From positions 2,368,001-2,432,000 of the forward strand of contig CAWJET010000001.1 in the NCBI GenBank assembly GCA_963842085.1: DNA of 64,000 nucleotides, given 5' to 3'. This DNA is from an uncultured delta proteobacterium (lineage in GTDB: Bacteria; Desulfobacterota; Binatia; Binatales; Binataceae). Both the position numbers and the translations under genes were made by a program. Numbering within the stretch: the first letter of the stretch is position 1; the number at the start of each line of letters is the position of its first letter. The notes under the pieces are model-generated. The model saw only the letters and a list, made by a program, of their open reading frames with translations, ran no database searches and was not told the origin of the DNA. This document shows positions 423 to 26,792 of this stretch, in pieces.

Positions 423-1682
423 ATGGAAACTGAACAGGCACTGTCGCTTGAATCGTTGAACATCATCGGTCCCGACCACTACATGAAAAACGGCTATCCG
501 CATCGCGAATGGACGTATCTGCGCAAGCACAAGCCGGTTTTCTGGTGCGAGTATCCAAAGACCGACCCATTCTGGGCGATTACCAAGCACGCCGACATCA
601 TCCAGATCTCGAAGCAGCCGCGCCTGTTCCTCAACGGGCCCCGCTTGCTGGTGTTCGTCAACGAGGAAGGACTCGAGGAGAGTCCGACGCCGCCGTTTCG
701 CCACCTGCTCGACATGGACCCTCCCGACCACGGCGAATATCGCGTCGTCGTCAGCCGCCACTTCACGCCGCGCGGCGTGCGTCCGCTCCAGCCGGAAATC
801 GAGAACATCACGCGCGGCGTGCTCGACGACGTGACCGGCCGCGACACCTGCGACTTTGTCACCGACGTATCGTCGAAGATTCCGCTCGCCGTCATCGCCG
901 AGCTGTTGGGTGTTCCGCATAAAGACTGGGAGCAGCTCTTCCGATGGACCAACGAGACGATCGGCGGCGGCGACCCCGAGTTCCAGGCCGGCACGAGCGC
1001 GCAGGAGACGATGGATCGTTCGCGGCTGGGACTGTTCCAGTATTTCACCGACATGGTGGCGCAGCGGATGAAGCATCCGACCAACGACATCACCAGCATC
1101 GTCGCCAACGGCAAGGTCAACGGCCAGCCGATCCCGCAGTTCGAGATGTTGTCGTACTATTTCCTGCTGGTCGTGGCCGGCAACGAGACCACGCGTAACG
1201 CGACCACCGGCGGCCTGCTGGCTTTCATCGACAATCCGGGCGAGTGGCAGAAGCTCAAGCGCAATCCCAGGTTGATCGACTCGGCGGTCGAGGAGATCGT
1301 CCGATGGACGACGCCGGTCATTCAATTCGCGCGTACCGCGACCGAAGATACCGTTGTTCGCGGCCAGAAGATCAAGGCCGGCGAGTCGGTATGCCTGTTT
1401 TATCCGTCGGCGAATCGCGACGAAGAAGTTTTCAAGGATCCTTTCAAGTTCGACATCAGCCGCAATCCGAATCCGCACATCGCATTCGGCATCGGCGAGC
1501 ATTTCTGCCTCGGCGCCAACCTCGCGCGGCTCGAGCTGAAGGTGATTTTCAGCCAACTGGCACAGCGCCTCGATCACGCCGAGCTGGCCGGCCCCGTCGA
1601 GCGGCTGCGCTCGAGCTTCGTCGGCGGCATCAAGCACATGCCGATTCGCCTCAAGATGAAGCCGGCCGCCAAGGCGGCCTGA
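423..1682 (+). CDS. Cytochrome P450 (CYP125/CYP142-like)
   Basis: AGNETT I-helix, EEIVR (ExxR), heme motif FGIGEHFCLG. Confidence 0.95.
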   Translation: METEQALSLESLNIIGPDHYMKNGYPHREWTYLRKHKPVFWCEYPKTDPFWAITKHADIIQISKQPRLFLNGPRLLVFVNEEGLEESPTPPFRHLLDMDPPDHGEYRVVVSRHFTPRGVRPLQPEIENITRGVLDDVTGRDTCDFVTDVSSKIPLAVIAELLGVPHKDWEQLFRWTNETIGGGDPEFQAGTSAQETMDRSRLGLFQYFTDMVAQRMKHPTNDITSIVANGKVNGQPIPQFEMLSYYFLLVVAGNETTRNATTGGLLAFIDNPGEWQKLKRNPRLIDSAVEEIVRWTTPVIQFARTATEDTVVRGQKIKAGESVCLFYPSANRDEEVFKDPFKFDISRNPNPHIAFGIGEHFCLGANLARLELKVIFSQLAQRLDHAELAGPVERLRSSFVGGIKHMPIRLKMKPAAKAA

Positions 1683-1695
1683 GGAGGCGTCTCCG

Positions 1696-2394
1696 ATGAT
1701 TACTCCGCGCAAGTCTGCCGCCCGCGGACGCACCAAAATCGACTGGCTCGACAGCCGTCACACTTTCTCGTTCGGCGACTACTACGACCCGGGCCAGATG
1801 GGATTTCGGACGCTGCGCGTCATCAACGAGGATCGCGTCCGTCCGGGCGCGGGTTTCCCAACGCACGGGCATCGCGACATGGAGATCATCACCTACATTC
1901 TCGAAGGCGCGCTCGAGCACAAGGACAGCCTCGGCACCGGCTCGATCATTCGTCCCGGCGAAGCGCAGCGAATGAGTGCGGGCACGGGAATCACGCACAG
2001 CGAATTCAATCATTCGAAGACCGACCCGGTTCATTTTCTGCAGATTTGGATCAGGCCTTCCACGCCCGGCATCGCCCCCGGCTACGAGCAGAAGACGATC
2101 GACGATGCGAAGGCGCACGGCGGCTTCGCACCGATCGGCTCTCCCGACGGCGGCGGTCGGTCAGTGAAAATTCACCAGGACGCGATGCTGTCGGTAGCAA
2201 AACTCGAGCGCGGACAGACTGTCGCGATCAATCTGAAAAAGGGCCGCCACGGATGGGTGCAAGTAGCGCGCGGCGCGGTCACAGTTAACGGCACGCCACT
2301 CGCGGAGGGTGACGGCGCCGCGATCAGCGACGAAGAGAAAGTGGCGATCGTAGCCAGCACGCCCGCGGAAGTACTGTTCTTCGATCTGGCCTGA
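1696..2394 (+). CDS. Pirin family protein (YhhW-like)
   Basis: HTFSF, GFPTHGHRDMEI, MSAGTGITHSE, FLQIW motifs. Confidence 0.93.
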   Translation: MITPRKSAARGRTKIDWLDSRHTFSFGDYYDPGQMGFRTLRVINEDRVRPGAGFPTHGHRDMEIITYILEGALEHKDSLGTGSIIRPGEAQRMSAGTGITHSEFNHSKTDPVHFLQIWIRPSTPGIAPGYEQKTIDDAKAHGGFAPIGSPDGGGRSVKIHQDAMLSVAKLERGQTVAINLKKGRHGWVQVARGAVTVNGTPLAEGDGAAISDEEKVAIVASTPAEVLFFDLA

Positions 2395-2405
2395 GTCAGC
2401 CGCGC

Positions 2406-3086
2406 TCAACCCTTCGTCGCCGCGCGCAACCGCGCCAAATCGTAATCCCGTAGCTGATCGATTCTGTCCACGGTGACGTCGGGCGTCATGTACATGGCCA
2501 CCTCCTTCGCGTCAGCCGCGTAATGCCCCTGGCGAGGGAACACCGTCGTTACGCGCGCGCCCCACGTCTTTTTCACCGCGTCGAGGATTCGCACCTTGTC
2601 ATCGATCAGCACGTAATGATCGGCGGGGTAGCGCGCCTTCACGTCGTCGAGTTCCTGCTCCTTGTGGATGTAAATCATTACGTTCTCATCGACCGCTTCG
2701 CGGATTCCCGACCGTTCGATCTTGAGCGGCTGAAAAATCATGTCGCCATCGGACAGGATCGCCGTCTCGCCGCATTGCTTGTATTGCTCGATCACGTCGA
2801 GCGCGCAGGGAAACAGCCGGTTCGCGAAATGGTAGTTCATCAGGAAGTACGAGACCGCAATTATTCCGAAGTCGCGCGGATGATTGACCCGGTAGCGCTG
2901 CAGCGCGCCCAGATAGTCCGCGTAGCCGAGCTCGGTGCGCAGCTCCTCGAAATACTCCCAGTAGCGCTGCTGCTGATCGTTGCCGATATCGCGCTCCAGG
3001 TTGCGCTTCATGTCGGCCACGATGCGATCGTTGTCGAGCAGCGTGTTATCCACGTCAAACAAAAAAACGACATGTTCTCGTGCCAT
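2406..3086 (-). CDS. HAD-superfamily hydrolase
   Basis: FLFDVDNTL motif I, ILSDG motif II, LIDD motif IV; start set at MAREH (3086). Confidence 0.85.
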   Translation of the reverse strand: MAREHVVFLFDVDNTLLDNDRIVADMKRNLERDIGNDQQQRYWEYFEELRTELGYADYLGALQRYRVNHPRDFGIIAVSYFLMNYHFANRLFPCALDVIEQYKQCGETAILSDGDMIFQPLKIERSGIREAVDENVMIYIHKEQELDDVKARYPADHYVLIDDKVRILDAVKKTWGARVTTVFPRQGHYAADAKEVAMYMTPDVTVDRIDQLRDYDLARLRAATKG

Positions 3087-3121
3087 CGGTCCGAAGTCCT
3101 CCGCCGACAATGATTGCGATT

Positions 3122-4207
3122 CTAACGCGCTGAGGGAATCGGGGTGGCGCCGTGTGCGCTCGATTCGTAGCACGCCTCGACCACCGCCATCGTGCGGAGC
3201 GCGTCCTCGACCCCGGAGACCAGCTTTGAATCCTCGCCCGCCGCAAAGCGCTGCAGGTTCGACACCGGACCCTCGAACGCCTCGAGAAACCACGAGCCGC
3301 GCAGCGCAATCGGGACCCAGCCGTTCGAATCTTCGCTCGCGATCTCGAGCGTGTCGAGCTCGCCCGCGGGATAATTGAGATTCACGCCCATCTTGGCGAT
3401 TGCGGCGCCGCGCGTGCCTTCGAGCTTGAGCTGCGACATCCCGTAGCGTCCGCCAAAGGTGTGCGCGTGATTCATCGTCAGGCTGCATCGAATGGTCTCG
3501 CCATAGTCGAGCACGATGCTGGTGCGGGTGTCCGCGTACTCCGGCATCGCCGGATGGCGCACGCCCTTACAATACACGCCGCGCGGTTCGCCTATCAGCG
3601 AGCGAATCAAATCGAGGTAATGAATCGAATGCATCAGCACCTCGAGGCGCGGCACGCCCTTGAGGAACGCCCAGTAGTTCCACGGCGTGTGAAGATTGAT
3701 CCGCACTTCGAGGTCGAGCACCCCGCCGAAAACGCCGCGTGCGAGCGCGTCCCTGACCGCCAGCATGTTGGGCGCGAAGCGGAGCTGAAAATTCACCGCG
3801 GCGGCCAGCTTTCGCTCGGCGCAAATCACAGCTATCCGGCGGGCGTCGGCAAGGTCGCGGCCGATCGGCTTTTGAATCAGCACCGCGGCGCCGGATGGCA
3901 GCCGTTCCAGCACGCCTGCAATATGTTGCGGCGGGATCGCGACGTCGAAAATCACATCGCGCATCGACGCGGCTTCATCGATCGTCTCGAATACGCGCGG
4001 AATCGCAAACGCCGCCGCCCGCTCGCGGCTTGCTTTGGGATTCACGTCGAAAATGCCGGCGACCGGGAAGCCGAGACGTTGATAAACCGGCAGATGAGCG
4101 TCGCGAACGATGCTGCCGGCGCCGATCACGACGATCGGTTTCGCCGCCGACGGACGCGGCCATGACTGCCGCAAGTCGCGGATCGAAGCTGGCAATTCAG
4201 TCGTCAT
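3122..4207 (-). CDS. Gfo/Idh/MocA family oxidoreductase (probable sugar dehydrogenase)
   Basis: VIGAGSIV Rossmann motif, IQKP, NFQLRF, HSIHYLD; start MTTEL. Confidence 0.88.
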   Translation of the reverse strand: MTTELPASIRDLRQSWPRPSAAKPIVVIGAGSIVRDAHLPVYQRLGFPVAGIFDVNPKASRERAAAFAIPRVFETIDEAASMRDVIFDVAIPPQHIAGVLERLPSGAAVLIQKPIGRDLADARRIAVICAERKLAAAVNFQLRFAPNMLAVRDALARGVFGGVLDLEVRINLHTPWNYWAFLKGVPRLEVLMHSIHYLDLIRSLIGEPRGVYCKGVRHPAMPEYADTRTSIVLDYGETIRCSLTMNHAHTFGGRYGMSQLKLEGTRGAAIAKMGVNLNYPAGELDTLEIASEDSNGWVPIALRGSWFLEAFEGPVSNLQRFAAGEDSKLVSGVEDALRTMAVVEACYESSAHGATPIPSAR

Positions 4208-4220
4208 CGCCGGTCGCGCG

Positions 4221-4230
4221 ATGCTACCAT
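4221..4230. promoter_or_regulatory. Candidate bidirectional extended -10 promoter
   Basis: ATGCTACCAT reads TGc-TACCAT on + and TGg-TAGCAT on -, within a 43 bp gap between divergent starts. Confidence 0.45.
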
Positions 4231-4250
4231 GCCGCACAGAGGAAGCGATC

Positions 4251-5555
4251 ATGGCGCGCACAATCTCGGGACTCAGCGTCCGCGACATCCGAACTCCGAC
4301 TTCGCGCACGCTGGCGGGCTCCGACGCCGTCCACACCGATCCCGACTACTCCGCCGCATATGTAGTCCTCACCACCGACGCGCGGGACGGACTAGAAGGC
4401 CATGGCATGACGTTCACGCTCGGCCGCGGCAACGAGGTGGTGGTGACAGCCGTCCGCGCGTTGCAGCATCTCGTGGTCGGCTCGACGTACGACGACATAG
4501 TCGCCGACCTTGGTGGCTTCTGGGATCGACTCACTTTCGAGAGCCAGCTCAGGTGGATCGGCCCGGAGAAGGGCGCGATTCATCTCGCCACGGCTGCAAT
4601 CGTAAATGCGGTCTGGGACCTCTACGCCAAAATCGAGCGCAAGCCGGTGTGGAAACTCGTCGCCGACATGACGCCGGAGCAGTTCGTCTCATGCATCGAC
4701 TTCCGCTATCTCACCGACGCTCTCACCCGCGACGACGCGCTCGCGATTCTGCGCGCCGGATTCGCCACGCGCGGCGAGCGCGAAGCGCAGATGCGCAAGG
4801 AGGGCTACCCTGCGTACATCACGTCCGCCGGATGGATGGGATATCCAGACGACAAAGTTCGCCGGCTGTGCCGCGAGGCGCTCGCCGCGGGATGGACCCG
4901 GTTCAAGATAAAAATAGGGCGCGACGCTGGCGCCAACGTTCATCGCGCGGCGCTGGTGCGCGGAGAAATCGGACCGCGCGCGGTTATGATGATGGATGCG
5001 AACCAGGCGTGGGACGTCGGCGAAGCGATCGAGTTCATGCGCCCGCTGGCGCGCTTCAATCCTTTGTGGATCGAAGAACCCACCAGTCCCGACGACGTCC
5101 TCGGCCACGCCACGATTCGGCGCGCGATCGCGCCTATTGGAGTCGCGACGGGAGAGCACGCGGCCAACCGCGTGATGTTCAAGCAGTTGATGCAGGCCGG
5201 CGCGATCGACTTCTGCCAGTTCGACAATTGCCGCCTCGGCGGACTCAGCGAAGCGCTTGCCGTGCTGCTGCTAGCCGCGAAGTTCGGCGTGCCGGTTTGC
5301 CCGCACGCGGGCGGAATCGGACTGTGCGAGTACGGCCAGCACGTTTCCCTGATCGATTACATTTGCGTGAGCGGCAGCCTTGACCACCGGATGATCGAGT
5401 TCGCCGATCACCTGCACGAACACTTTAAGGATCCCGTCGTCGTGCGCGGCGACCGCTACATCGCGCCGACGGCGCCGGGATTCAGCATCGAGATGCTCCC
5501 CGCCTCGCTCACGGCGTTCGAGTTTCCCGGCGGATCGGAATGGAGAAGGAAATGA
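4251..5555 (+). CDS. L-fuconate dehydratase-like enolase superfamily enzyme
   Basis: GSDAVHTDPDYSAAY, QLRWIGPEKG, KIKIG, MMDANQ, WIEEP, PVCPHAGG. Confidence 0.9.
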   Translation: MARTISGLSVRDIRTPTSRTLAGSDAVHTDPDYSAAYVVLTTDARDGLEGHGMTFTLGRGNEVVVTAVRALQHLVVGSTYDDIVADLGGFWDRLTFESQLRWIGPEKGAIHLATAAIVNAVWDLYAKIERKPVWKLVADMTPEQFVSCIDFRYLTDALTRDDALAILRAGFATRGEREAQMRKEGYPAYITSAGWMGYPDDKVRRLCREALAAGWTRFKIKIGRDAGANVHRAALVRGEIGPRAVMMMDANQAWDVGEAIEFMRPLARFNPLWIEEPTSPDDVLGHATIRRAIAPIGVATGEHAANRVMFKQLMQAGAIDFCQFDNCRLGGLSEALAVLLLAAKFGVPVCPHAGGIGLCEYGQHVSLIDYICVSGSLDHRMIEFADHLHEHFKDPVVVRGDRYIAPTAPGFSIEMLPASLTAFEFPGGSEWRRK

Positions 5556-6358
5556 AGCACAGAATCAGATTATCGTTGTTCGTCCTGCTAGCTCTGTCGA
5601 TCGCTGCGATCTCACCAACTCAGTCCGCGTCGGCCGCGGATGACACGTCCGCGCTCCAGGCGGCGATCGCGGGACCGCAACGCTCCGAGGCCAACAAGGC
5701 TCGCGACAAGTATCGCCATCCGCTCGAGACGCTGACCTTCTTCGGGATCCAGCCCGACATGACCGTGGTCGAGATCTCACCCGGCGCCGGTTGGTATACC
5801 GAAATCCTCGCGCCATTTCTCAGGGACCACGGCAAGCTCTACGAAGCGGTGGGAGCTGGACCGGGCGCGAAGACCTTCGAGGACAAACTCAAGGCCGATC
5901 CCGCGGTATACCGACAGGTAATCGTAACTACGCTCCAGCCGCCGGCTCAAACGGAGATCGCCCCGCCGGACTCGGCCGATATGGTCCTGACGTTTCGCAA
6001 CGTCCACGACTGGCTTCCGCGTGGCACCACGGAAGACTACTTCAAGGCTTTTTATCGCGCGCTGAAACCCGGCGGAATCCTGGGCATTACCGACCATCGC
6101 GCCGATCAGTCGCAGCCGCAGGATCCCAACGCCAAAAGCGGATATGTACGTCAGGACTATATGATCAAACTGGCGGAGCAAGCCGGCTTCAAGCTGGCGG
6201 GTACGTCGGAGATCAATGCGAATCCCAAGGACCTGCGGGATCATCCGGTGTGGTACCTGCCGCCAACCTTGCGCCAGGGAGAAACCGATCGCGCCAAGTA
6301 TCTGGCAATCGGCGAAAGCGACCGGATGACGCTCAAGTTCATCAAGCCGGCGACCTAG
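5552..6358 (+). CDS. Exported class I SAM-dependent methyltransferase-like protein (COG4798 type)
   Basis: Signal peptide; RDKYRHPLETL, VVEISPGAGWYT, LTFRNVHDW, IGESDRMTLKF; ATGA overlap with upstream stop. Confidence 0.85.
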   Translation: MKHRIRLSLFVLLALSIAAISPTQSASAADDTSALQAAIAGPQRSEANKARDKYRHPLETLTFFGIQPDMTVVEISPGAGWYTEILAPFLRDHGKLYEAVGAGPGAKTFEDKLKADPAVYRQVIVTTLQPPAQTEIAPPDSADMVLTFRNVHDWLPRGTTEDYFKAFYRALKPGGILGITDHRADQSQPQDPNAKSGYVRQDYMIKLAEQAGFKLAGTSEINANPKDLRDHPVWYLPPTLRQGETDRAKYLAIGESDRMTLKFIKPAT

Positions 6359-10870: not shown

Positions 10871-11787
10871 TTGGCCATGAGCCGATTTCAGCTGCCGCGT
10901 TACGTGGATCTCATCATCCCGACCTTAACGGCTCTCAAAGAACTGGGAGGCTCGGCCACAATCCACGAGCTGAATGCGGCGGTTATCAGAAAGCTCGGAC
11001 TGACCGAACAAGAACTGAGCGCTGACGATATCCGAACGCAGTTGGACTTGAAGCTTACTTGGACCAGAACGATCCTCAAAAATTCGGATCTCGTAAGCAA
11101 TTCAAGCCGTGGCGTCTGGGCGATTCGCGATCCAGAACTAGATCTCCAAAGGGTTGATCCCGAAGCAGTCTGGCGCCACCACAGAGAGCAGTATCCCTCC
11201 GTCGAACCCCGGCCCCATGAAGCACCGGCTGCCCGGGCTGGTGTGACTGAAGAGGTGGCCAGTGTTACGAGAGTAGCCGAGCGTGGACCCTCGACAGACG
11301 AGGATGCTACCGAAGCACCCCAAGATTCGGGGTACGAGCTTGCAGTCCTCCAGAGGTTGCTGGCCTTATCCCCACCTGGATTTGAGCGTTTTTGCCAGCG
11401 CTTACTTCGCGAATCCGGTTCGAACAGGTGGTTGTAACCGGCCGGTCTCACGACGGCGGAATAGATGGGGCCGGGATCCTACGGATTAATCCTCTCGTAA
11501 GCATTAAGGTGCTCTTTCAGTGTAAGCGTTACTCTGGCTCTGTCGGTGTCCGCGAGATTCGTGATTTTCGCGGCTCCGTGCACGGAAGGGCGGACAAAGG
11601 AATCATAATTACAACCGGCTCGTTCACCGACGAGGCTAAGAAGGAGGCTGTCCGAGACGGCGCTCTCGCCATCGACTTGGTGGATCGCGAAAAGCTAATT
11701 GAATTATTGGAGAACCTCGAGCTCGGGCTCACACGGCGTGAGACCTATCAAATCGACGCCGCGCTGTTCAGGGAATTCGAACCCTAG
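10871..11787 (+). pseudogene. mrr: Mrr-type (type IV) restriction endonuclease, frameshifted
   Basis: Mrr N-terminal domain (ALKELGGSA...RGVW) in one frame; catalytic domain (DGGID, QCKRY, GIIITTG) in another; break at LLRESG|FEQV ~11416-11422; lower GC than flanks. Confidence 0.85.
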
Positions 11788-12273
11788 TTGTCGAACTGGC
11801 TGCGCTATAACGGTCACGTGCTTCCAATCGATCCGCTATGCCCCGGTCCGGGTCGTCTTTGGCAGTGAAGGCGAATAGTCGCAAGGCCGACTCTCAGCTT
11901 GCGAATCCTAGACTCGACGCGCATCCTCGCCCGCGCAGATCCTGCACGAAGCGACGCAATAAGTCAGCGCCGCTCAACTGCTTCGCACCATACCATTTCG
12001 ACAGCGCCTCGTCGCTGCTTGCTTCGTCGGGATGATAGACAGGCGATCGCTATGCTTCGTCACGATGGACAGACGAGCCCTCGCGTTGTTTACTTCGGTC
12101 GGGATGAAAAGTAGTGCGCAGTGGGGATGCGCACAAAAACTCTCAGGCTCTAAGGTATCACTATCGCGCAAACGACTATTGGCCGCGATACGTAACATAT
12201 ACTAAGTAGTGATTCGCTGAAGTGCATTGGCTTGCGACACGATTGACTTGACCATCATGCGGGAGCGGCACCG

Positions 12274-13953
12274 ATGAACAGAATCAAGGGTCTGCTGGCG
12301 GCGGCAACGGCTACGGTTCTCCTGATGCTGGCCACGCCCGCGTTCGCACAGTACAAGCCGTGGCCGACACCGCTGCCGGAAGCGCCCAAGTGGGGTGACT
12401 ACGACAGCGGCCATACCTGGCGTGATGCCGCGTGGTGGTGGCAATCGCAGCCCGACTGGGTCAAGCACCATCACCCTGAATGGTGGGGAGATTTCGACAA
12501 CGATCACTTATGGCACCCCGCCTGGTGGTGGTGGGATTCGCAGCCGGCATGGGTACGGGAACATCACCCGGAATGGTGGGGCGCGTTTTACCAGGGCCAG
12601 TGGTATCCGGCGACGTGGTGGGCTCAATACCAGCCGGAATGGGTGCAACAGTATCATCCTGAATGGTGGGGCGCTCCCGACAACGGCTTTTGGTATCCCG
12701 CGGGATGGTGGTGGAGGCTCCAGCCCGCTTGGGTGTTGCAGAATCACCCCGAATGGTGGGGCGACGATTGGGACGGCTTGTGGTATCCCGCTCCGTGGTG
12801 GTGGCAATTACAGCCCCAATGGGTAATCGCGCATCATCCGGATTGGTGGGGGGATTACTACGAGGGCGTCTGGTACGCGGCGCCGTGGTGGTACCAGTAT
12901 CATCCCGAATGGGTTCCGCTGCATCATCCGGACTGGTGGGGTGAGTTCGACGATCACCATTATTGGCGCCCGGCGGGATGGTGGTGGCAGTATCACTCCG
13001 ACTGGTGCCGCCAGAATCATCCCGATTGGTGGGGCGACTTCGACGACCAGCACATCTGGCGGCCTGCGGGCTGGTGGTGGCAGAACAATCCCAACTGGGT
13101 GCGCGAAAATCATCCCGACTGGCGGGGTGCCTTCGACGACAACAAAATCTGGCGTCCTGCAAGCTACTGGTGGCAAACGAAGCCGGACTGGACGCGCGAG
13201 AATCATCCCAACTGGTGGGGTGACTTCGACGACAAACACATCTGGCATACCGACACCTGGTGGCATCTGCATGACGCCACGTGGGCGGAACAGCACCATC
13301 CCGAATGGAAGGGCGACTACGACGACAAGCACGTCTGGCACGACCTCCATTGGTGGGCGCAGAAAGACTCTGCCGTGGCAATGCAGCGTCATCCCGATTG
13401 GAACGACGCGATGCACGAGTCGGTAGCGCGCCAGCATGGCGTGCAAGAGGAAGCTCTCCAGCGTCAGCACGATGTGCAGCTACAGGATCTCGAGCGCAAT
13501 CGCGCCGAGCAGCAGCAGGAGGCCGAGCGCACTCAGGCCGCGCAATTACGGCAGCTTCAGCAAAAGCATGACGCGGAGACGCAGGCCTTTGAGCGTCAGC
13601 ATCTGCAGGAAGTGCAGCAGCGCGTGAAGGCCGCTCCTCAAGCCGAGGAGAATGGTGCTCAGTGGCGCCAAGTCGAGGAGAGTCACACTCAGCAATCGGC
13701 GGAACTCCTGCGCCGCCATCAAGCGGAGACGCAGGCGCTGGTGCGCCAGCAGGCGGCGGAACAGCAAAAGGTCCAGCAACGGCAGTTTGCCCGCCAACAG
13801 GATCTACAGCGCCAGCACGCGCAGGAAATGCAGTCCTTTGAGAAGCAGCATGCGCAGCAGGTGCAGGCGTTCGAGCGTCCGCGCGGCGGCGGCGGAGGCG
13901 GCGGGCATGTCGAAGCACCGCACGGCGGCGGCGGTGAGAAAGGGCATCGCTAG
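12274..13953 (+). CDS. Secreted protein with 11 tandem Trp/His-rich repeats and a Gln-rich coiled-coil tail; function unknown
   Basis: Signal peptide ending AFA; GGGAG Shine-Dalgarno; repeat consensus WGD(F/Y)DxxHxWxPAxWWWxxxPxWVxxxHP(E/D)W. Confidence 0.9.
   Translation: MNRIKGLLAAATATVLLMLATPAFAQYKPWPTPLPEAPKWGDYDSGHTWRDAAWWWQSQPDWVKHHHPEWWGDFDNDHLWHPAWWWWDSQPAWVREHHPEWWGAFYQGQWYPATWWAQYQPEWVQQYHPEWWGAPDNGFWYPAGWWWRLQPAWVLQNHPEWWGDDWDGLWYPAPWWWQLQPQWVIAHHPDWWGDYYEGVWYAAPWWYQYHPEWVPLHHPDWWGEFDDHHYWRPAGWWWQYHSDWCRQNHPDWWGDFDDQHIWRPAGWWWQNNPNWVRENHPDWRGAFDDNKIWRPASYWWQTKPDWTRENHPNWWGDFDDKHIWHTDTWWHLHDATWAEQHHPEWKGDYDDKHVWHDLHWWAQKDSAVAMQRHPDWNDAMHESVARQHGVQEEALQRQHDVQLQDLERNRAEQQQEAERTQAAQLRQLQQKHDAETQAFERQHLQEVQQRVKAAPQAEENGAQWRQVEESHTQQSAELLRRHQAETQALVRQQAAEQQKVQQRQFARQQDLQRQHAQEMQSFEKQHAQQVQAFERPRGGGGGGGHVEAPHGGGGEKGHR
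12391..13401 (+). repeat. Coding tandem repeat, 11 units of 90-93 bp
   Basis: Recurring CA(T/C)CCxGAxTGGTGGGG; seven units of 31 aa and four of 30 aa. Confidence 0.92.
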
Positions 13954-14017: not shown

Positions 14018-14707
14018 CTAGCGGCGCTCGAACTGTTTGGTACCGTACAGTATCGAGCGAGCCTCGTCGTCGAGCGGCGCGGGCGGCAGGTCGGCCATCA
14101 CGCCGACCCCTCGTTTGACGGCGGGACGCTCGCCGATTGCGTCGAGCCATCGCTTGAAATTCGGACGGCTCTCCAACTGCTCGGGTTCGCGGCGCGTTCC
14201 CACCACCCACGGATAGGTCGCCATGTCCGCGATCGAGTAATCGCCCGCCAGGTACGCGCTCTCGGCGAGGCGATTTTCGATTACATTGAGCAGGCGGCGC
14301 GATTCGTTGGTGTAGCGCTCGATCGCGTACGGGATCTTCTCCGGCGCGGCGCGCAAAAAATGCCCCCGCTGCCCGAACATCGGTCCAACGCCCGCCATCT
14401 GGAACATCAGCCACTGTACGACATTGTAACGCGCGCGGGTCTCCGACGGCATGAACTTGCCGGTTTTCTCGGCCAGGTAGAGCAGGATCGCGCCGGACTC
14501 GAAGAGCGAGAACGGCTTCCCGCCCGGACCGTCGCGGTCGATGATCGCGGGCATCCGGTTGTTCGGGCTGATCTTGAGGAACTCGGGCGCGAACTGCTCG
14601 CCCTTGCGGATATTTACCGGCACGATTTTGTATTCGAGCCCGGTCTCCTCGAGAAAGATCGTGATCTTGTGCCCATTCGGTGTCGGCCAATAGTAGAGGT
14701 CGATCAT
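14018..14707 (-). CDS. Glutathione S-transferase, YfcG-like
   Basis: MIDLYYWPTPNG, ISPNNRMPAI, FESGAILLYLAEK. Confidence 0.92.
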   Translation of the reverse strand: MIDLYYWPTPNGHKITIFLEETGLEYKIVPVNIRKGEQFAPEFLKISPNNRMPAIIDRDGPGGKPFSLFESGAILLYLAEKTGKFMPSETRARYNVVQWLMFQMAGVGPMFGQRGHFLRAAPEKIPYAIERYTNESRRLLNVIENRLAESAYLAGDYSIADMATYPWVVGTRREPEQLESRPNFKRWLDAIGERPAVKRGVGVMADLPPAPLDDEARSILYGTKQFERR

Positions 14708-14731: not shown

Positions 14732-15565
14732 TCAATGCGGAATCCAGATCGGGGCGGCGCTGAACAGGTGGTCAACGATACCTATCTGGTAGGCGAGGAA
14801 CAGGCCAAAGCCGAAACTCAGGAGGCCTGAGCCGGTGACGAGTCCCTGATGGATCCGCGACGCACGCCGCGACGCGACCATGAACGGCGTGGCGATCGCG
14901 GTCGTGATCAGGCCCATCCCGATTATCGTGCCGACGCAGAAAATCGCGAGGTAGAGCGTCGCCCATAGCGGCTCCGGAATCGCGCTCAGCACCAGCAACG
15001 CAATCGCGGCGCTGCCCGCCAGTCCATGAACCAGTCCCACGCCGAAGGATCTCAGCAGCGGCCGCCGCGCGGCCAACGTCGGCAATCTGTCGCCCGGGAT
15101 GCGATGATCGTGATGCATCGCGTCGTCGTTCGCCTCGTGAAGGTCAACATGAACGTGGGGATGCGAATGCATGGCGTCGTCATGAGCGTGCGCGTGCGCA
15201 TGGACGATCAGGCCTTCATCCTTCGACGAACGTCCGCGCATTCGAGTTGCCGCGTTGCGCATCAAGCTTGCTGCCGCGCCGACGCCGAGCAAAATCAGCA
15301 CGACCGCGACTGCAAATTCCATCGCCAGTCCCAGCCGCGTCGGGATCGCAATTTTGAAAACTATGATCGCGGCGCCCACCAGCAGCACCGTGATCGTGTG
15401 CCCGAGTCCCCATACGATGCCGACACGGGTCGCGGCCACCAACCTACGCTCGCGGCTGAGGATGGTCGTGACGGCGATCACGTGATCGGGATCGGTTGCA
15501 TGGCGCATTCCGAGCACCAGTCCGAGGAGCGCGATCGCGAGCGGCGCGGCATTGGCAGGGATCAT
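14732..15565 (-). CDS. Ni/Co transporter (NiCoT/UreH-like)
   Basis: GMRHATDPDH, WGLGH, His-rich loop, GLVHGLAGSA. Confidence 0.9.
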   Translation of the reverse strand: MIPANAAPLAIALLGLVLGMRHATDPDHVIAVTTILSRERRLVAATRVGIVWGLGHTITVLLVGAAIIVFKIAIPTRLGLAMEFAVAVVLILLGVGAAASLMRNAATRMRGRSSKDEGLIVHAHAHAHDDAMHSHPHVHVDLHEANDDAMHHDHRIPGDRLPTLAARRPLLRSFGVGLVHGLAGSAAIALLVLSAIPEPLWATLYLAIFCVGTIIGMGLITTAIATPFMVASRRASRIHQGLVTGSGLLSFGFGLFLAYQIGIVDHLFSAAPIWIPH

Positions 15566-15653
15566 CTGGCTGCTTTAACTGGCTCCGGGGTTAGAGATGG
15601 TTTGGGCCGTCGGGGTCAGGCACTTCCCTAAGACTCCGAACGTTGAAGGTAAC

Positions 15654-16415
15654 TTACTCCGACAGTCCGGCAATATGGATTTTCGAATGATTCCGCGCTT
15701 CACCCTTGACCAGGTATGCAACCTGATCGTGATACTGGCGGAGTCGAATCACCTCATCGGGGGAATCCACACGCGAAATGAACTCATTGACCGCGCGGGC
15801 GCAACCGTTCCAGGCATAATAGTCGTCGATGATTACCACGCCACCATCGGCCACCCTGGGAAACAGATTCTCCAGGCACACGCGAGTCGAGTCGTACCAG
15901 TCGCCGTCCAGCCGCAGCACCGCTATCGGAGAGGGAAAATTGAACGAGGGCACCGTCACATTGAACCATCCCTTCACTAGGGAATACGAGGTCGCACGCG
16001 AACGCTTCATCGCGGCGCCGGCTTCCTCCTCGCTGGCGGTACAGTTCTTGCCCGATTTCTGCAGGTCAGCGTCGTTCTGCCACGCGATCGCTTGCTTGCC
16101 ATCGATCTCCCGCGCAGGGGGCAGACCCTCGAAGCTGTCGAACAGGAAATAGTGCCGATCCGGACCGAGTACATCGGCGATTCCCGCGATCATCCCGCCG
16201 CGCCATACTCCGCATTCCACCACGCAGCCCGGCGTGCGCCTGAACGTCCACACCAGCGCGAGATTGCTGATGTATCTCTTCTCCTGGATCATCGTATGGT
16301 CATGAAATTTGCGGGAAATCTCCCTGAAACCCGCGCGCAGGCGGTGCCTCTCCTGCCTTCGGGCGCTGGCAAAGGTCTTGAGCAGCAGGTCTGAAACGCT
16401 CATCTCGCGCGTCAT
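15654..16415 (-). CDS. TylF/MycF family O-methyltransferase
   Basis: VECGVWRGG, FDSFEGLP, KGWF, LRLDGDWYDST, IIDDY; start uncertain. Confidence 0.9.
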   Translation of the reverse strand: MTREMSVSDLLLKTFASARRQERHRLRAGFREISRKFHDHTMIQEKRYISNLALVWTFRRTPGCVVECGVWRGGMIAGIADVLGPDRHYFLFDSFEGLPPAREIDGKQAIAWQNDADLQKSGKNCTASEEEAGAAMKRSRATSYSLVKGWFNVTVPSFNFPSPIAVLRLDGDWYDSTRVCLENLFPRVADGGVVIIDDYYAWNGCARAVNEFISRVDSPDEVIRLRQYHDQVAYLVKGEARNHSKIHIAGLSE

Positions 16416-16602
16416 CTTAGCCCGCGCGGGGGGGGAGGTGGCAAGTTGGCGCAACTCTACTTCGAGGAACGGGAGCGCCCGCCGGATGTGGAGTAGCGTC
16501 AGAATCCCGCCGCGAACGCGACGCGGGGATAGTGGTCGCGCCGTATCATAGGCTATGCACTAAAGGGCTGCAGCAAATGTTCTCGCAAATGTGGGTCGCA
16601 GC

Positions 16603-17961: not shown

Positions 17962-18082
17962 ATCAAGAGTCCGACCTTCAGACGTCGGAAACGCCCGATT
18001 CTCCAGCAAAATCAAGCAATTTTAGCCCGATTTCCGACGAAACTGGCTTCGTTCGGATTGCGGAATGACGGAGGTGTCGTCC

Positions 18083-19267
18083 ATGAACCCGGCTAGCTTA
18101 CACATTTTGACGATCAATGGCGGCTCGTCGAGCATTAAATTCGCGTTGTTTGAAGCTGGCGAGCCGCTACGCCGCGCGTTGGAAGGAAGTATTGACCGGA
18201 TCGGCCTGCCGGGCGCCACGTTTGCAGTAAAAGGTTCGGAGAACTTTTCGCGACTGTTGCCCGTGCCGAACCACACCGTAGCAGTGAATGTGTTGATGGA
18301 TTGGCTGGAGAAACGCAGCGGCCATGATGCATTGACCGCGGTGGGGCATCGTGTGGTGCATGGCGGGCCGAAATATTTCGAGCCGCAGCGAATCACTGCG
18401 GAGATGGTCGAGGATCTGCACGGGCTCAGTCCTTTCGATCCTGAGCATATGCCGGAGGAGATCCTGCTGACCGAGGCGTTTCATCACCGATTTCCTGACC
18501 TGCCCCAAGTCGCGTGTTTCGACACGGCTTTTCACCATGACCTCCCGCAAGTCGCCCGGTTGTTGCCGATCCCGCGCCGCTACGAAGCGCAAGGTGTGCG
18601 GCGGTACGGGTTCCACGGGTTGTCGTATACGTTTCTGATGGGAGAACTGGCCCGCCTGGCCGGATCGGAAACGGCACAAGGCCGGATCATCCTCGCACAC
18701 CTGGGCAACGGCGCGAGCTTGGCGGCCGTGCGTGACGGCAAATCCGTGGACACAAGCATGAGTTTTACCCCAACAGCCGGGGTGCCGATGAGTACCCGCT
18801 CAGGCGATCTCGATCCCGGACTGGTTTGGTATCTGGCGCACACTGAAAAAATGAGCGCGAAGGAATTCAACGAGATGGTCAATTTCCAGTCCGGGCTGCG
18901 CGGCATGTCGGGGACTAGTTCCGACATGCGTGACTTGCTCGACCGTGAAACGCAGGACGTGCGAGCGGCTGAAGCGGTCGCACTGTTTTGCTACCAGGTC
19001 AAGAAATGGATCGGCGCATTCGCGGCGGCGTTGGGCGGATTGGACACGCTGGTGTTCACCGGCGGGATCGGCGAAAACGCGCCCAAGGTCCGCACGCGGA
19101 TTTGCGATGGGCTGGGATTCCTTGGAATCGAACTCGAAGAGAAGCGAAACGCAGCGAATGAGGGCGTGATTTCTGCAGCGGCAGGCCGGGTCGCGGTCCG
19201 CGTCATTCATACGGACGAAGAACTCATAATCGCCAGGACGGTTTGCCGCGTTCTCGGCCTTGGCTGA
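18083..19267 (+). CDS. ackA: Acetate/propionate kinase
   Basis: INGGSSSIKF, GHRVVHGG, FDTAFH, YGFHGLSY, HLGNGAS, FTGGIGEN. Confidence 0.95.
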   Translation: MNPASLHILTINGGSSSIKFALFEAGEPLRRALEGSIDRIGLPGATFAVKGSENFSRLLPVPNHTVAVNVLMDWLEKRSGHDALTAVGHRVVHGGPKYFEPQRITAEMVEDLHGLSPFDPEHMPEEILLTEAFHHRFPDLPQVACFDTAFHHDLPQVARLLPIPRRYEAQGVRRYGFHGLSYTFLMGELARLAGSETAQGRIILAHLGNGASLAAVRDGKSVDTSMSFTPTAGVPMSTRSGDLDPGLVWYLAHTEKMSAKEFNEMVNFQSGLRGMSGTSSDMRDLLDRETQDVRAAEAVALFCYQVKKWIGAFAAALGGLDTLVFTGGIGENAPKVRTRICDGLGFLGIELEEKRNAANEGVISAAAGRVAVRVIHTDEELIIARTVCRVLGLG

Positions 19268-19284
19268 AAGAAGCGAATTGAACC

Positions 19285-21714
19285 ATGAATACAAACACTC
19301 TTTCCCCGGAACTGCTCCACAAGATGGATGCGTACTGGCGCGCTGCCAACTATCTGTCGGTCGGCCAGATTTATCTCTATGACAATCCGCTGCTGAAGGA
19401 GCCACTGAAACTGTCGCACGTGAAGCCGCTGGTGGTCGGACATTGGGGCACGGTGCCAGGTCAGAACTTCATATACGTGCACCTCAACCGGGTCATCAAG
19501 AAGTATGACCTGGATATGTTCTACATTGCCGGTCCGGGCCACGGTGGGGCGGCGTTGGTGGGCAACGTTTACCTCGAAGGCACCTGGAGTGAGATCTATC
19601 CGAACGTCACCCAGGACGAAGCCGGGATGAAAGAGCTGTTCAAGCAATTTTCGTTTCCCGGCGGGATCTCCAGCCACGTTGCGCCGACGACGCCGGGCTC
19701 GATTCACGAAGGCGGCGAGCTGGGGTACTCGCTCAGCCATGCTTTTGGGGCCGCGTTCGACAATCCCGATCTGATCGTCGCCTGCATCATCGGCGACGGC
19801 GAGGCGGAAACGGGCCCGCTGGCGACCGCATGGCAGTCCAACAAGTTTCTCGATCCAATTACCGACGGAGCCGTGCTGCCGATCCTGCACCTCAATGGCT
19901 ACAAGATCAGCAACCCGACCGTGCTCGCCCGCATCGAGCACGAGGAGTTAGAGCAATTTCTGCGAGGCTGCGGCTGGACGCCCTACTTTGTAGAAGGTGA
20001 TGAGCCGGAGAAGATGCATCAACTCATGGCCGCCACCATGGAAAAGGTCATCGAAGACATTCGGCAAATCCAACGCAACGCACGTGACAAAAACGACACC
20101 ACTCGGCGACGTTGGCCAATGATCGTTCTGAGATCGCCCAAGGGTTGGACAGGCCCGAAAGTTGTCGACGGCTTACAAATCGAAGGCACCTTCCGATCGC
20201 ACCAGGTGCCGCTGCTGGTGGACCCCGAGCATCCCGACCATGTCAAGCTGCTTGAAAGCTGGATGAAGAGCTACAAGGCCGAGGAGCTGTTCGACGAGCA
20301 TGGCTGTCTTATTCCGGAATTGGCCGAACTGGCGCCCAAGGGCGAGCGGCGGATGGGCGCCAATCCGCACGCCAACGGCGGCATCCTGCTGCACGATCTG
20401 CGAATGCCGGATTTCCATGACCATGCGGTGAAGGTGCCTTCGCCCGGCGCCGTCGAGGGCCAGGATACCCTGGTGCTGGGCAAGTTCCTGCGTGACGTGG
20501 CCAAGCTGAATCAGGAGCAGCGCAATTTCCGGATCTTCGGTCCCGATGAGACACTGTCGAATCTGTTGGGCGCGGTTTTTGAAGTCACCGACCGTCAGTG
20601 GGACGCCCGGGAAGTTAAGAATGACGAATTCCTCGCGCCCGCCGGACGCGTGCTGGACTCGATGCTCAGCGAGCATCAGTGCGAGGGTTGGCTCGAGGGT
20701 TACCTGCTCACCGGACGGCACGGGCTTTTCAATAGCTATGAGGCCTTCATTCGCATCGTCGACTCAATGTTCAGCCAGCACGCCAAGTGGCTTAAGGTGA
20801 CGTCGGAACTGCCCTGGCGCCGGAAGATCTCGTCTTTGAACTATCTGCTGGCCTCCCACGTCTGGCAGCAGGATCACAACGGCTTCACGCACCAGGACCC
20901 AGGTTTTCTCGACCACGTGATCAACAAGAAGGCCGATATCGTGCGCATCTATTTACCGCCGGACGCGAACTGTCTGCTGTCGGTCTTCGACCACTGCCTG
21001 CGCAGCCGGCATTACGTCAACGTGGTGGTTGCAGGCAAGCACGCCCTGCCCCAATGGCTGACGATGGATGCGGCGGTCGTGCATTGCACGGAAGGAATTG
21101 GCATCTGGCAATGGGCCAGCAACGACCAGGGCGCCGAGCCGGACGTGGTGATGGCCTGTTGCGGAGATACACCCACGCTGGAGATCCTGGCTGCCGTTTC
21201 CATCCTTCGCGAACATCTGCCTGAACTGAAAATCCGGGTGATCAACGTCGTCGATCTCATGAAGCTGCAGCCCGCCACTGAGCACCCTCACGGTCTCAAC
21301 GAGAGAGATTACGACTCGCTTTTCACCCAGGACAAGCACATCATCTTTGGCTTCCATGGATACCCATGGCTGGTCCACCGGCTGACCTACCGGCGCACCA
21401 ACCGCAACCTACATGTTCGGGGCTATAAGGAAGAGGGCACTATCACGACGGCCTTCGACATGAGGGTGCAGAACGATCTGGATCGATTCCACTTGGTTCA
21501 AGACGTGGTGGATCGCCTTCCGCATTTGGGCGCCAAGGGGAGCTATCTAAAGCAGATGATGCAGGACAAGCTCATCGAGCACAAACATTACATCGACAAG
21601 CACGGCCAGGACTTGCCGGAAATCCGGAACTGGAAATGGAAGCAGCCGAGCAGTAACAACGCCGATCCGAGATCATTCGGGATGGAATCGGGAAGGCAGC
21701 TATCTCATGAATAG
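19285..21714 (+). CDS. xfp: Phosphoketolase (XFP family)
   Basis: [51 protein letters not shown]. Confidence 0.96.
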
Positions 21715-24835: not shown

Positions 24836-25714
24836 ATGAACTACCGGAAGAGATTCGTCGTCGAGCCTGGCGCCAAGGTCCGCCTCGATAAGATTGACCC
24901 GGGATTCAAAGACAGGCACGACCAATCGCACCAAGACGCGACGCCGGAGATCCAGAAGCACGTCGAGCGCCTGGCCAAGGCGCAGTATCTGCTGTACGCC
25001 GACGGAAGCAAGTCGCTGCTGGTCGTACTGCAGGCGCTGGACGCCGGCGGCAAGGACGGAGTCGTGCGCCACGTGTTCACCGCAATGAACCCGCAGGGGA
25101 CGTTGGTCGCGAGCTTCAAACAGCCGAGTAAGATCGAAGCGGCCCACGACTTCCTTTGGCGCGCCCACCTGCACACGCCGGCCAAAGGGCAAGTCGTGAT
25201 CTTCAATCGGTCGCACTATGAGGATGTGTTGGTGGTGCGCGTGCACAAGATGGTGCCGAAGTCGGTGTGGTCGAAGCGCTACGACTTGATCAACGATTTC
25301 GAGCAGATGCTTCACGACAACGGCACGCGCATCCTCAAGTTCTATCTCCACATCAGCCCCGAGGAGCAGCTCGAGCGCTTCGCGCAGCGCCTCGATGACC
25401 CGATGCGGCACTGGAAAATCAGTGAGGGCGACTACTCGGAGCGCAAGCTGTGGCCGGAGTATATCAAGGCATACGAGGAAGTCCTGGAAAGGACGAGCAC
25501 CAAGCACGCCCCGTGGTACGTGATCCCGTCCGATCACAAGTGGTTCCGCAGTCTGGCCATTTCCGAGATTCTTGCCGACACGATGGAGGACATGGACCTG
25601 AAGCTGCCGCCGGCGCAGGTGGACATTGCGCAAATTCGTCACAAATATCACGCTGCGGCGGCGCAACAGGCGCGGCGCGGTCACAAGCCGCCGAAGGCGC
25701 CGCGCAAGAAGTAA
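24836..25714 (+). CDS. ppk2: Polyphosphate kinase 2 family protein
   Basis: LQALDAGGKDG, HDFLWR, FNRSHYEDV, PWYVIPSDHKW. Confidence 0.93.
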   Translation: MNYRKRFVVEPGAKVRLDKIDPGFKDRHDQSHQDATPEIQKHVERLAKAQYLLYADGSKSLLVVLQALDAGGKDGVVRHVFTAMNPQGTLVASFKQPSKIEAAHDFLWRAHLHTPAKGQVVIFNRSHYEDVLVVRVHKMVPKSVWSKRYDLINDFEQMLHDNGTRILKFYLHISPEEQLERFAQRLDDPMRHWKISEGDYSERKLWPEYIKAYEEVLERTSTKHAPWYVIPSDHKWFRSLAISEILADTMEDMDLKLPPAQVDIAQIRHKYHAAAAQQARRGHKPPKAPRKK

Positions 25715-26434: not shown

Positions 26435-26792
26435 TGGTGGAGGCGGGGGGAATTGAACCCCCGTCCGAAGGCCTTCCGGCGACGGCCACTACACGCTTAG
26501 TCTGCGAATTTTAGCTCGCGTCAGAAACGCCCACAGACGGGCTTCGCTAACGCCAGCCGGCTGAAGTTTCGGTAAGCCGCCCAGCCGGTGAACTGCGGTT
26601 CCCTAGCCCACTAAATGACGCCCCGACCCGCTGCCATGGGCGAGCAGCGGCGGGACGCTAGCGGCCCTTAGGCCGCCAGAGCGTAACCGTTATTGTCTGC
26701 GGGTAAATTTCGCAGTCTGCCAGTTTTACGGGTCGACAGCACCCGGCGTGCGACCATGGCCATATTGTCTTCGTCGAATCCAGTTCGCCCCC
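26435..26792 (-). ncRNA. ssrA: tmRNA
   Basis: 5' GGGGGCGAACTGGATTCGAC; 3' GGTTCAATTCCCCCCGCCTCCACCA with G3:U pair; tag ORF ADNNGYALAA* at 26700-26668. Confidence 0.97.

Follow-up and report, generated by a model that had tools for sequence, protein, structure and literature searches.

A tryptophan-rich tandem-repeat protein of Candidatus Binatus-type bacteria, predicted to form a solenoid, with a possible metal-binding role in the cell envelope

How does a protein fold when more than one in five residues of a long region is Trp, and what might such a protein do for the cell? This question is raised by a gene in a 64,000-nucleotide stretch of DNA from an uncultured delta proteobacterium (GenBank assembly GCA_963842085.1, contig CAWJET010000001.1, positions 2,368,001 to 2,432,000), which we call the window and within which all coordinates are given. 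The gene is an ATG-started open reading frame (ORF) at 12274..13953 on the forward strand that, according to the ORF listing of the window, encodes a protein 559 aa long. A preliminary description made from the DNA letters had noticed a secreted protein built of Trp-rich repeats followed by a helical stalk. Here we report that the gene is under purifying selection and that its product belongs to a new repeat family, modelled as a solenoid with a helical tail. We tentatively suggest that it may serve as a periplasmic scaffold for divalent metal ions, and we weigh this against other roles.

Eleven Trp-rich units and their conservation

The protein contains 73 Trp (13.1%), 71 of which lie within the 337 residues from 40 to 376, where they make up 21.1% of the sequence. 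The background, taken from 16 other genes of the window with Pfam support (7,998 aa), is 1.53% Trp. We delimited the repeat units by cutting after each HP[E/D/N]W, which yielded 11 units with lengths, in order, of 31, 31, 30, 30, 30, 30, 31, 31, 31, 31 and 31 aa and the consensus W-G-(D/A)-x-D-x-x-H-x-W-x-P-A-x-W-W-W-Q-x-x-P-x-W-V-x-x-x-H-P-x-W. The HPxW motif is present in 11 of 11 units, as are G2, H28 and P29. The third Trp is the least conserved of the W-W-W triplet, and unit 11 is the most degenerate of the units. The earlier count of 11 repeats, 71 Trp in 337 residues and an invariant HPxW was reproduced exactly. When a hidden Markov model (HMM) of the 11 units was run against the six-frame translation of the window, it found the 11 units in this ORF and nothing else (next best E = 1.9).

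For comparison we used relatives from a DNA-level scan of one genome per species in GTDB r232. A full-length alignment of 50 proteins drew on 49 of the 63 loci found. The 14 loci that it omits (L008, L013, L014, L016, L018, L020, L021, L031, L032, L033, L058, L061, L062 and L063) have an ORF that is truncated, frame-shifted or cut by a contig end, or have an unclear N-terminus.

The first 25 aa of the window protein (12274..12348; this and all other parts of the gene are on the forward strand) resemble a signal peptide, with a start bearing Lys or Arg, a hydrophobic stretch, and A-x-A followed by Gln. Cleavage is likely after A-F-A and before Q26, judging from the sequence; A25 is invariant and Q26 is found in at least 90% of the 50 orthologues. 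The N-terminus has no Cys lipobox and no twin Arg. The signal peptide of the preliminary description is thus better called a putative one: its features are present and conserved in the 50 orthologues, and it is from these features that the assignment is drawn. The mature protein would start with a Pro-rich cap (aa 26-39; 12349..12390), delimited from the alignment and the structural model, in which the pattern Q-Y-x-P-W-P-x-P-x-P is kept among orthologues and which has no regular secondary structure in the model. Units 1-2 (aa 40-101; 12391..12576), located by unit cutting and the unit HMM, are of a 31-aa Asp/His type. By their consensus, units 3-6 (aa 102-221; 12577..12936) form a 30-aa subtype with W-Y-(P/A)-A, in agreement with the shorter subtype noticed earlier, and units 7-11 (aa 222-376; 12937..13401) are again of the 31-aa Asp/His type. 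Unit 7 holds the only Cys of the protein, C245, and this column is Cys in 26 of the 50 orthologues. After the units come a helical region rich in Gln, Glu, Arg, Ala and His (aa 377-536; 13402..13881) and a Gly/His-rich C-terminal end (aa 537-559; 13882..13950).

Trp accounts for 20 of the 36 columns that are invariant across the 50 orthologues, and in most units the His and Pro of HPxW show little or no variation. Conservation is highest at the Trp positions, a pattern that would fit residues forming a core as well as residues forming a ligand surface. The units of the window protein share a mean identity of 50% in amino acids and 63% in nucleotides, and their conserved Gly, Ala, Pro, His and Gln are encoded by several synonymous codons. 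Tandem Repeats Finder reported periods of 90, 93 and 180 nt with 72-77% matches. This divergence, together with the varied codon use, indicates that the repeats are old and have been maintained at the protein level. Nei-Gojobori estimates of dN/dS, the ratio of nonsynonymous to synonymous divergence, were 0.08-0.18 for the units and 0.17-0.46 for the tail in comparisons with the 11 orthologues that gave finite values; in a twelfth comparison the tail dS was saturated. The low ratios in the units and their 63% nucleotide identity bear out the earlier argument that diverged DNA with retained Trp reflects selection on the protein. The gene is intact, real and under purifying selection.

We give practically no weight to the opposite possibility, that the gene is a chance open frame or a decaying repeat without function. 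A long antisense ORF (12461..13918, reverse strand, 485 aa) and the frame-shifted state of several database and locus copies could be read in that way. However, all 49 aligned loci have the sense frame at full length, with the dN/dS given above for the units, and the start region and a Shine-Dalgarno-like site are conserved. By contrast, the length of the antisense frame ranges from 259 to 566 codons among 23 orthologues. Because it varies in this manner, we regard the antisense frame as a shadow of the stop-poor, TGG/CAG-rich sense gene and not as a second gene.

Predicted fold of the units and the tail

AlphaFold2, run with the 50-sequence alignment, gave a model with a mean predicted local distance difference test score (pLDDT) of 83 and a predicted template modelling score (pTM) of 0.65. 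Means over blocks of 10 residues were 83-93 from residue 41 to 390, and pLDDT was below 50 for residues 537-559. In this model each unit is a short β-hairpin followed by two 7-residue helices. The hairpin strands span G-D-x and W-x-P, helix 1 bears the W-W-W triplet, helix 2 bears P-x-W-V, and HPxW is the linker to the following unit. A relative with only two units (P0088), modelled independently with a 45-sequence alignment, showed hairpin-helix-helix twice with block pLDDT values of 88-96. The model thus shows, with high confidence, an α/β solenoid in which the 11 units of the repeat region stack regularly. The preliminary description had envisaged a solenoid of stacked aromatic residues; the regular stack of 11 units is retained in the model, and the purely aromatic stack is replaced by α/β units of a hairpin and two helices. 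From their conservation and sheer number, we infer that most Trp would pack into the core and the interfaces between units, making the scaffold rigid.

A Foldseek search of the full model against 350,542 chains of the Protein Data Bank (PDB) gave 94 matches at E ≤ 10 and none at E ≤ 0.001. The better ones were all antiparallel coiled coils aligned to the tail only (PLC-beta, E = 0.57; p85 iSH2). The two-unit model gave six PDB matches, the best at E = 8.6 and none at E ≤ 0.001. None of 200 listed matches of a Foldseek search against the BFVD viral models was significant, and the ESM Atlas contained an identical sequence, for which it gives no model, and no usable look-alike. At the sequence level, the only Pfam match of the window protein at E up to 10 was to PKK (E = 6.7; 7.3 bits with a cut-off of 25), no NCBIfam family matched at E up to 10, and none of 18 relatives had a Pfam match at cut-off. 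The best phmmer match to PDB sequences (E = 0.29) lay inside the helical, coiled-coil-like region only. Full-text literature searches gave no account of a Trp-rich periplasmic or solenoid repeat protein of this type, from Binatota or otherwise. The earlier statement that the protein belongs to no named family therefore holds for the Pfam, NCBIfam and PDB sequence searches, none of which gave a significant match. The preliminary description had held that a match to a characterised repeat family, or a lack of both homologues and expression, would speak against it; we found no such match, and homologues exist.

The repeat family is new, and Foldseek found no solved analogue of its predicted unit fold. 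The architecture of an exported tandem-repeat solenoid with a helical stalk is already known; what is new is the repeat family, and its Trp content is exceptional. A natural solenoid built on Trp, which has 21% Trp and yet is conserved and confidently predicted to fold, is of a kind that these searches did not find among solved structures. It is of interest for the study of fold space, for the design of repeat proteins and for the photophysics of Trp.

We compared the units with known repeats of similar build. Ankyrin repeats are 33 aa long, consist of two short antiparallel helices and a β-hairpin or loop, stack into a solenoid and carry the signature T-P-L-H. The Trp-rich units resemble them in their length of 30-31 aa, their hairpin and two 7-residue helices, their tandem stacking and their distinct terminal units, and the junction tetrapeptide containing His-Pro recalls T-P-L-H. 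They differ in having a core of Trp instead of Leu/Ala and in belonging to a protein that looks exported and is specific to a bacterial lineage. There was no Pfam Ank match at E up to 10, the junction motif is H-P-x-W and not T-P-L-H, and no ankyrin protein was among the Foldseek matches to PDB chains of either the full or the two-unit model. Choline-binding repeats (CW_binding_1) and the EAGR box are likewise short Trp/Tyr/Gly-rich units arranged around β-hairpins. However, choline-binding units are about 20 aa long, the EAGR box is a single domain of about 55 aa, and neither has the two helices of the Trp-rich unit. No Pfam match to the CW_binding profiles or to the EAGR box was obtained, and a Foldseek match to the EAGR structure 4dcz_A was not significant (E = 6.3, TM 0.04/0.26 over 54 columns).

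Aromatic platforms bind ligand in carbohydrate-binding modules and in choline-binding repeats. This leads to the alternative that the protein is a scaffold binding a glycan or a polymer of the cell envelope through partly exposed stripes of Trp and Tyr along the solenoid. Such stripes could consist, for example, of Tyr in the 30-aa units and of the last Trp in the helix that bears W-W-W, and candidate ligands are peptidoglycan, exopolysaccharide and plant or peat polymers. Judging from the model, three consecutive Trp on a 7-residue helix could not all face the core, and the lower conservation of the third Trp agrees with this alternative. Aromatic residues account for 27.9% of the repeat region, which is also well supplied with Gln, Asn, Asp and His; surfaces that bind sugars typically have this composition, and the protein looks exported. 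Nonetheless, we consider glycan binding unlikely. There was no match to a carbohydrate- or cell-wall-binding Pfam profile at E up to 10. No fusion to a catalytic or other known domain was found among the members recovered in the near-length, longer and representative searches, of which the longer search is weak evidence. In tests of gene context, made by tblastn with 22 window proteins and by de novo clustering of 2,339 flanking ORFs, no glycan-related gene was a conserved neighbour.

After unit 11 the model has two long helices, from residue 374 to 453 and from 461 to 531, followed by 23 residues that are predicted to be disordered. This agrees with the long helical region and Gly-rich end described earlier. 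The 183 residues from 377 to 559 include 43 Gln, 23 Ala, 22 Glu, 18 Arg, 14 Gly and 12 His. In this tail the autocorrelation at a lag of 11 residues was 0.40 for Leu, Ile, Val, Met and Phe and 0.42 for His, values that 0 of 5000 shuffles reached in either case. At a lag of 7 it was -0.12, a value reached by 4726 of 5000 shuffles. Among the 50 orthologues, lag 11 was positive in 44 and lag 7 was positive in 2 and negative in 48. The tail repeatedly shows a motif of the form (A/S)-(F/L)-E-(R/K)-Q-H-x-x-Q-x-Q. We rejected a classical heptad coiled coil because the lag-7 signal is absent and the lag-11 signal is strong; the tail is a two-helix region of hendecad repeats. Of the Gln coiled-coil stalk named in the preliminary description, the long Gln-rich helical region stands, and its periodicity is of 11 residues rather than that of a heptad. 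The weak Foldseek matches to antiparallel coiled coils suggest that the two helices may pack antiparallel. Indeed, the best likeness of the tail is to antiparallel two-helix coiled coils such as the PLC-beta C-terminal domain (4gnk_E) and PI3K p85 iSH2, none of these matches being significant. Helical proteins with 11-residue repeats include apolipoproteins, LEA proteins and right-handed coiled coils; the tail is like them in that its hydrophobic and His positions recur every 11 residues, and it has no sequence relationship to them. We found no Pfam match to CpxP, Spy or ZraP at E up to 10 and saw no LTXXQ motif when the tail was inspected by eye.

The elongated two-part architecture of the model, with about 160 helical residues and 11 stacked units, suggests another alternative, in which the hendecad region would mediate a dimer or higher assembly and the solenoid would be a spacer or a surface fibre. 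Such a self-assembling envelope element would be in keeping with the retention of the tail in 50 of 50 orthologues while the number of units ranges from 7 to 11, with the second copies found in some genomes, and with the single Cys conserved in 26 of 50 orthologues, which could form an intermolecular disulfide. However, the mature part lacks Cys altogether in 19 of the 50 orthologues, and the Foldseek matches suggest that the helices pack within one chain, so that no partner is needed. When the sequence of the window protein was inspected by eye, we saw no membrane anchor, lipobox, β-barrel or known sorting signal. We therefore regard self-assembly as distinctly unlikely.

A possible metal-binding scaffold in the periplasm

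The best explanation of the predicted structure is that the protein forms an elongated rod in the cell envelope. As to the function of this rod, the possibility that we favour, though with considerable doubt, is that of a scaffold in the periplasm to which divalent metals (Ni, Cu, Zn or Co) would bind. The protein would be exported by Sec and cleaved after A-F-A, and because no anchor or sorting signal was seen it would stay in the periplasm. There the Trp scaffold would display a ladder of His, one per unit from HPxW, together with Asp and Glu from the G-D-x-D hairpins and from HP-E/D-W. The tail would contribute roughly one His in every 11 residues, with more ligands coming from the Gly/His end. 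This array of His and acidic residues could bind divalent metals at many sites of moderate affinity, and periplasmic metal would in this way be buffered or stored, or handed to transporters.

The composition of the family is consistent with such a role. His makes up 8.3% of the mature protein, compared with 2.48% in the 16 other genes of the window, and the orthologue median is 8.1%; in secreted relatives with two units the median is 22.4% (n = 45). Every unit junction has one conserved His and an acidic residue. At the C-terminus, 37 of the 50 orthologues have His within the last 3 residues, 38 have at least 3 His within the last 30, and 26 have HGG or GGH near the end; in other family members the chain finishes with runs like H-D-H-D-H-D or H-G-H-H-H-G-H. 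The protein thus shows the marked enrichment and clustering of His that characterise the composition of His-rich metal-binding proteins, which are a functional class and not a homologous family. Among the activities proposed in the preliminary description, metal binding is thus lent some indirect support by the His enrichment across the family. Ni- and Cu-dependent enzymes that face the periplasm are reported for Binatota in PMC8262859. Among known metal binders, Hpn and Hpn-like of Helicobacter are described as His- and Gln-rich Ni-binding proteins in PMC8704837 and PMC4671568. The window protein is like these in composition only, being enriched in His, with spaced His in a Gln-rich tail and a His-rich C-terminus. 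There is no sequence relationship, and Hpn-type proteins are small, cytoplasmic and largely unstructured with some tens of percent His, whereas the window protein looks exported, is 559 aa long, is mostly well folded in prediction and has 8% His.

Several observations weigh against metal binding. A His content of 8% is modest beside that of dedicated His-rich metal proteins, and the conserved His may have no role beyond structure, such as that of a ladder of hydrogen bonds between units. The Asp/His hairpin is absent from the 30-aa units, which make up nearly the whole set in some relatives such as P0003, so that ligands in the hairpin are not constant in the family. The gene context speaks partly for metal binding and partly against it. 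In favour is a His-rich membrane protein encoded at 14732-15565 on the reverse strand, which lies downstream of the Trp-rich gene and convergent to it in 22 close loci. It has an alternating H-A run, an H-x4-D-H-like motif and a Pfam match to NicO (nickel transport) at E = 2e-5, with 24.5 bits against a cut-off of 27.7. In some of these loci this gene directly adjoins the Trp-rich gene; the window has a GST gene (14018-14707) in between. The link to NicO is sub-threshold and confined to the close Binatus clade, where all is syntenic, and since the two genes are convergent they are not co-transcribed. In 37 more distant loci, no cluster of flanking ORFs recurred in more than 7. Finally, consensus and Rfam scans of the upstream region gave no recognisable metal-regulator site or riboswitch.

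The density of aromatic residues also raises the question of a redox role, in which holes, supplied perhaps by His-bound Cu or some other oxidant, would travel about 10 nm along a closely packed chain of Trp and Tyr, or the aromatic residues would act as a sacrificial sink for periplasmic oxidants. With 6-7 Trp per 30-31 residues in a regular stack, a continuous aromatic chain is geometrically plausible in the model, and His and Tyr are enriched as well. However, dense Trp is explained more simply by packing, there is no cofactor motif (no CxxCH), 39 of the 50 orthologues have only 0-1 Cys, and no redox partner gene is conserved. A redox role thus seems very improbable. We give equally scant credence to a more elaborate form of this idea, a wire made of a column of Trp. 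If the wire is real, its fold would be new, with 60-70 or so Trp stacked without a break into a core column about 10 nm long. It would be poor in cofactors: Cu or Ni bound to His in the tail and where units meet would inject or accept holes, which would hop from one Trp or Tyr to the next across the periplasm in an uncultured lineage of methylotrophs or alkane oxidisers. A milder form of the idea, if real, would be an entirely new class of metal store in the periplasm, and its fold, too, would be new to structural biology. More generally, the family may mark an envelope biology specific to its lineage, be it metal handling, polymer binding or envelope architecture, in globally distributed soil bacteria that are still uncultured.

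Distribution, upstream region and neighbouring genes

A near-length search of 5.8 billion protein clusters gave only 5 relatives, several of which change frame midway. A phmmer search of 1.84 billion representatives gave 95 matches at E ≤ 0.001 (41 at ≤ 1e-10), most of which were short fragments. By contrast, the DNA-level scan gave 159 pattern matches, 64 of which encode a relative, at 63 distinct loci. The family is therefore an example of genes that are missing from protein databases, with 5 near-length protein relatives as compared to 63 DNA loci, and we attribute the small number of intact database members to frame switches in the deposited copies. A switch of frame inside the repeats was seen in P0002, P0004, P0005, P0006 and others and in loci L013, L016, L031, L032, L061 and L062, after which the copies read into nonsense rich in Gly, Arg, Ser and Thr. 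These switches are probably indel errors in repeat-rich, TGG-rich sequence. P0002 was considered as a fusion and rejected, as its sequence looks like a run-on gene call that changes frame.

The lineage labels of the 63 loci are Candidatus Binatus or Binataceae in 24, Candidatus Acidiferrales in one, and broad labels in 38 (uncultured delta proteobacterium in 27, Deltaproteobacteria bacterium in 3, uncultured proteobacterium in 4 and Proteobacteria bacterium in 4). The locus labelled Acidiferrales (L007) may be mis-binned, since its 9-kb contig is syntenic with Binatus loci. In a maximum-likelihood tree of the 50 proteins, those with broad labels were interleaved with those labelled Binataceae, and the window protein fell in a clade of 15 (support 100/99) with Binatus soli and Binatus sp. 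The NCBI taxonomy places Binatus within Candidatus Binatota. The window is accordingly most likely part of a Binatus chromosome. The multi-unit form was found only in genomes that, from these sequences, appear to be of Binataceae type, and is lineage-restricted on this evidence.

When units were counted with the unit HMM, 24 of the 50 proteins had 11 units, 6 had 10, 8 had 9, 10 had 8 and 2 had 7. Essentially all 50 retain units 1-4 and 10-11, and the variable units are those in the middle, 5-9; units 1-2 are present in 50 of 50, and so is the helical tail. Retained end units with a variable middle are the pattern expected of a solenoid with capping units. Some genomes carry two copies (L014 and L050, L021 and L054, and L033 and L057), and at L057 two large family members are in tandem on the forward strand of that locus, at about 1240-3330 and 3634-6003. 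Locus L011 has a paralogue on the reverse strand (15322-16425 of that locus), 4.5 kb from the main gene. It is predicted to encode a protein of 367 aa in which three units are followed by a tail rich in Gln and His, with a recurring Q-Q-Q-A-T-H, and by a Gly/His end; the neighbours of this paralogue were uninformative. L063 was considered as a small relative near the gene and rejected as a degraded fragment.

A profile search also found 83 clusters of small relatives, about 95-101 aa long, with a signal peptide and two units. We looked up 20 of these clusters, and all four that bear an organism name are from Binatus or Binataceae. In eight mid-size relatives (P0051, P0053, P0065, P0078, P0079, P0083, P0086 and P0089), a second type of short repeat, N-P-x-L-x-x-x-P-x-x-x-x-x-H-P-x-L-x-x-F-L, lies ahead of the two units; it does not occur in the window protein. 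In P0086 and P0089 this second repeat type has matches to the MHB haemophore family of Pfam that are below the cut-off (E = 8.7e-4 and 0.048).

Upstream of the Trp-rich gene, an alignment of 19 upstream regions defined a conserved leader at 12170..12273 on the forward strand. Among close relatives, conservation extends over the start codon, a GGGAG-like site and about 100 nt of upstream sequence. Reading by eye, we noted a TATAAT-like box, TATACT, at 12198-12203, about 75 nt ahead of the start. A nearly invariant block of 26 nt with an internal direct repeat lies at 12227-12252, about 25-45 nt ahead of the start, and the Shine-Dalgarno-like GGGAG is at 12261-12265. A 14-nt core of the block was found in 16 of the 63 loci (L001-L005, L009, L010, L012, L013, L015-L017, L019, L022, L032 and L041), always 30-45 nt before the start. 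The leader may act as an operator bound by a protein. An Rfam search of the upstream region gave no match, and RNAalifold gave 9 pairs with 0 compensatory changes. A 6-bp stem that would join the block to the start region was rejected, as compensatory changes are lacking and the window's own sequence disrupts half of it. A scan for promoter consensus sequences found 0 promoters, and a terminator scan found 2 terminator-like sites as compared to 1.7 expected.

The close Binatus clade is syntenic around the Trp-rich gene, with an FAD monooxygenase gene upstream in 21 loci. Because no neighbour is conserved outside this clade, the gene looks stand-alone and its context gives no functional partner. 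Between the FAD monooxygenase gene and the Trp-rich gene, the window has an Mrr-type restriction endonuclease on the forward strand in overlapping frames (Mrr_N at 10871-11437 and Mrr_cat at 11392-11787). Its split over two frames suggests a frameshift, and its occurrence in 0 of 63 related loci makes it look like an insertion specific to the window. Other genes of the window are housekeeping genes, including those for RecA, AlaRS, a release factor, Lnt and class II RNR. A tmRNA gene at 26435-26792 on the reverse strand matches Rfam RF00023 over its full length with 190 bits. A pair of genes for acetate kinase and phosphoketolase (XFP) at 18065-21714 on the forward strand has no counterpart at that place in related loci, and a PPK2 polyphosphate kinase is encoded at 24836-25714 on the same strand.

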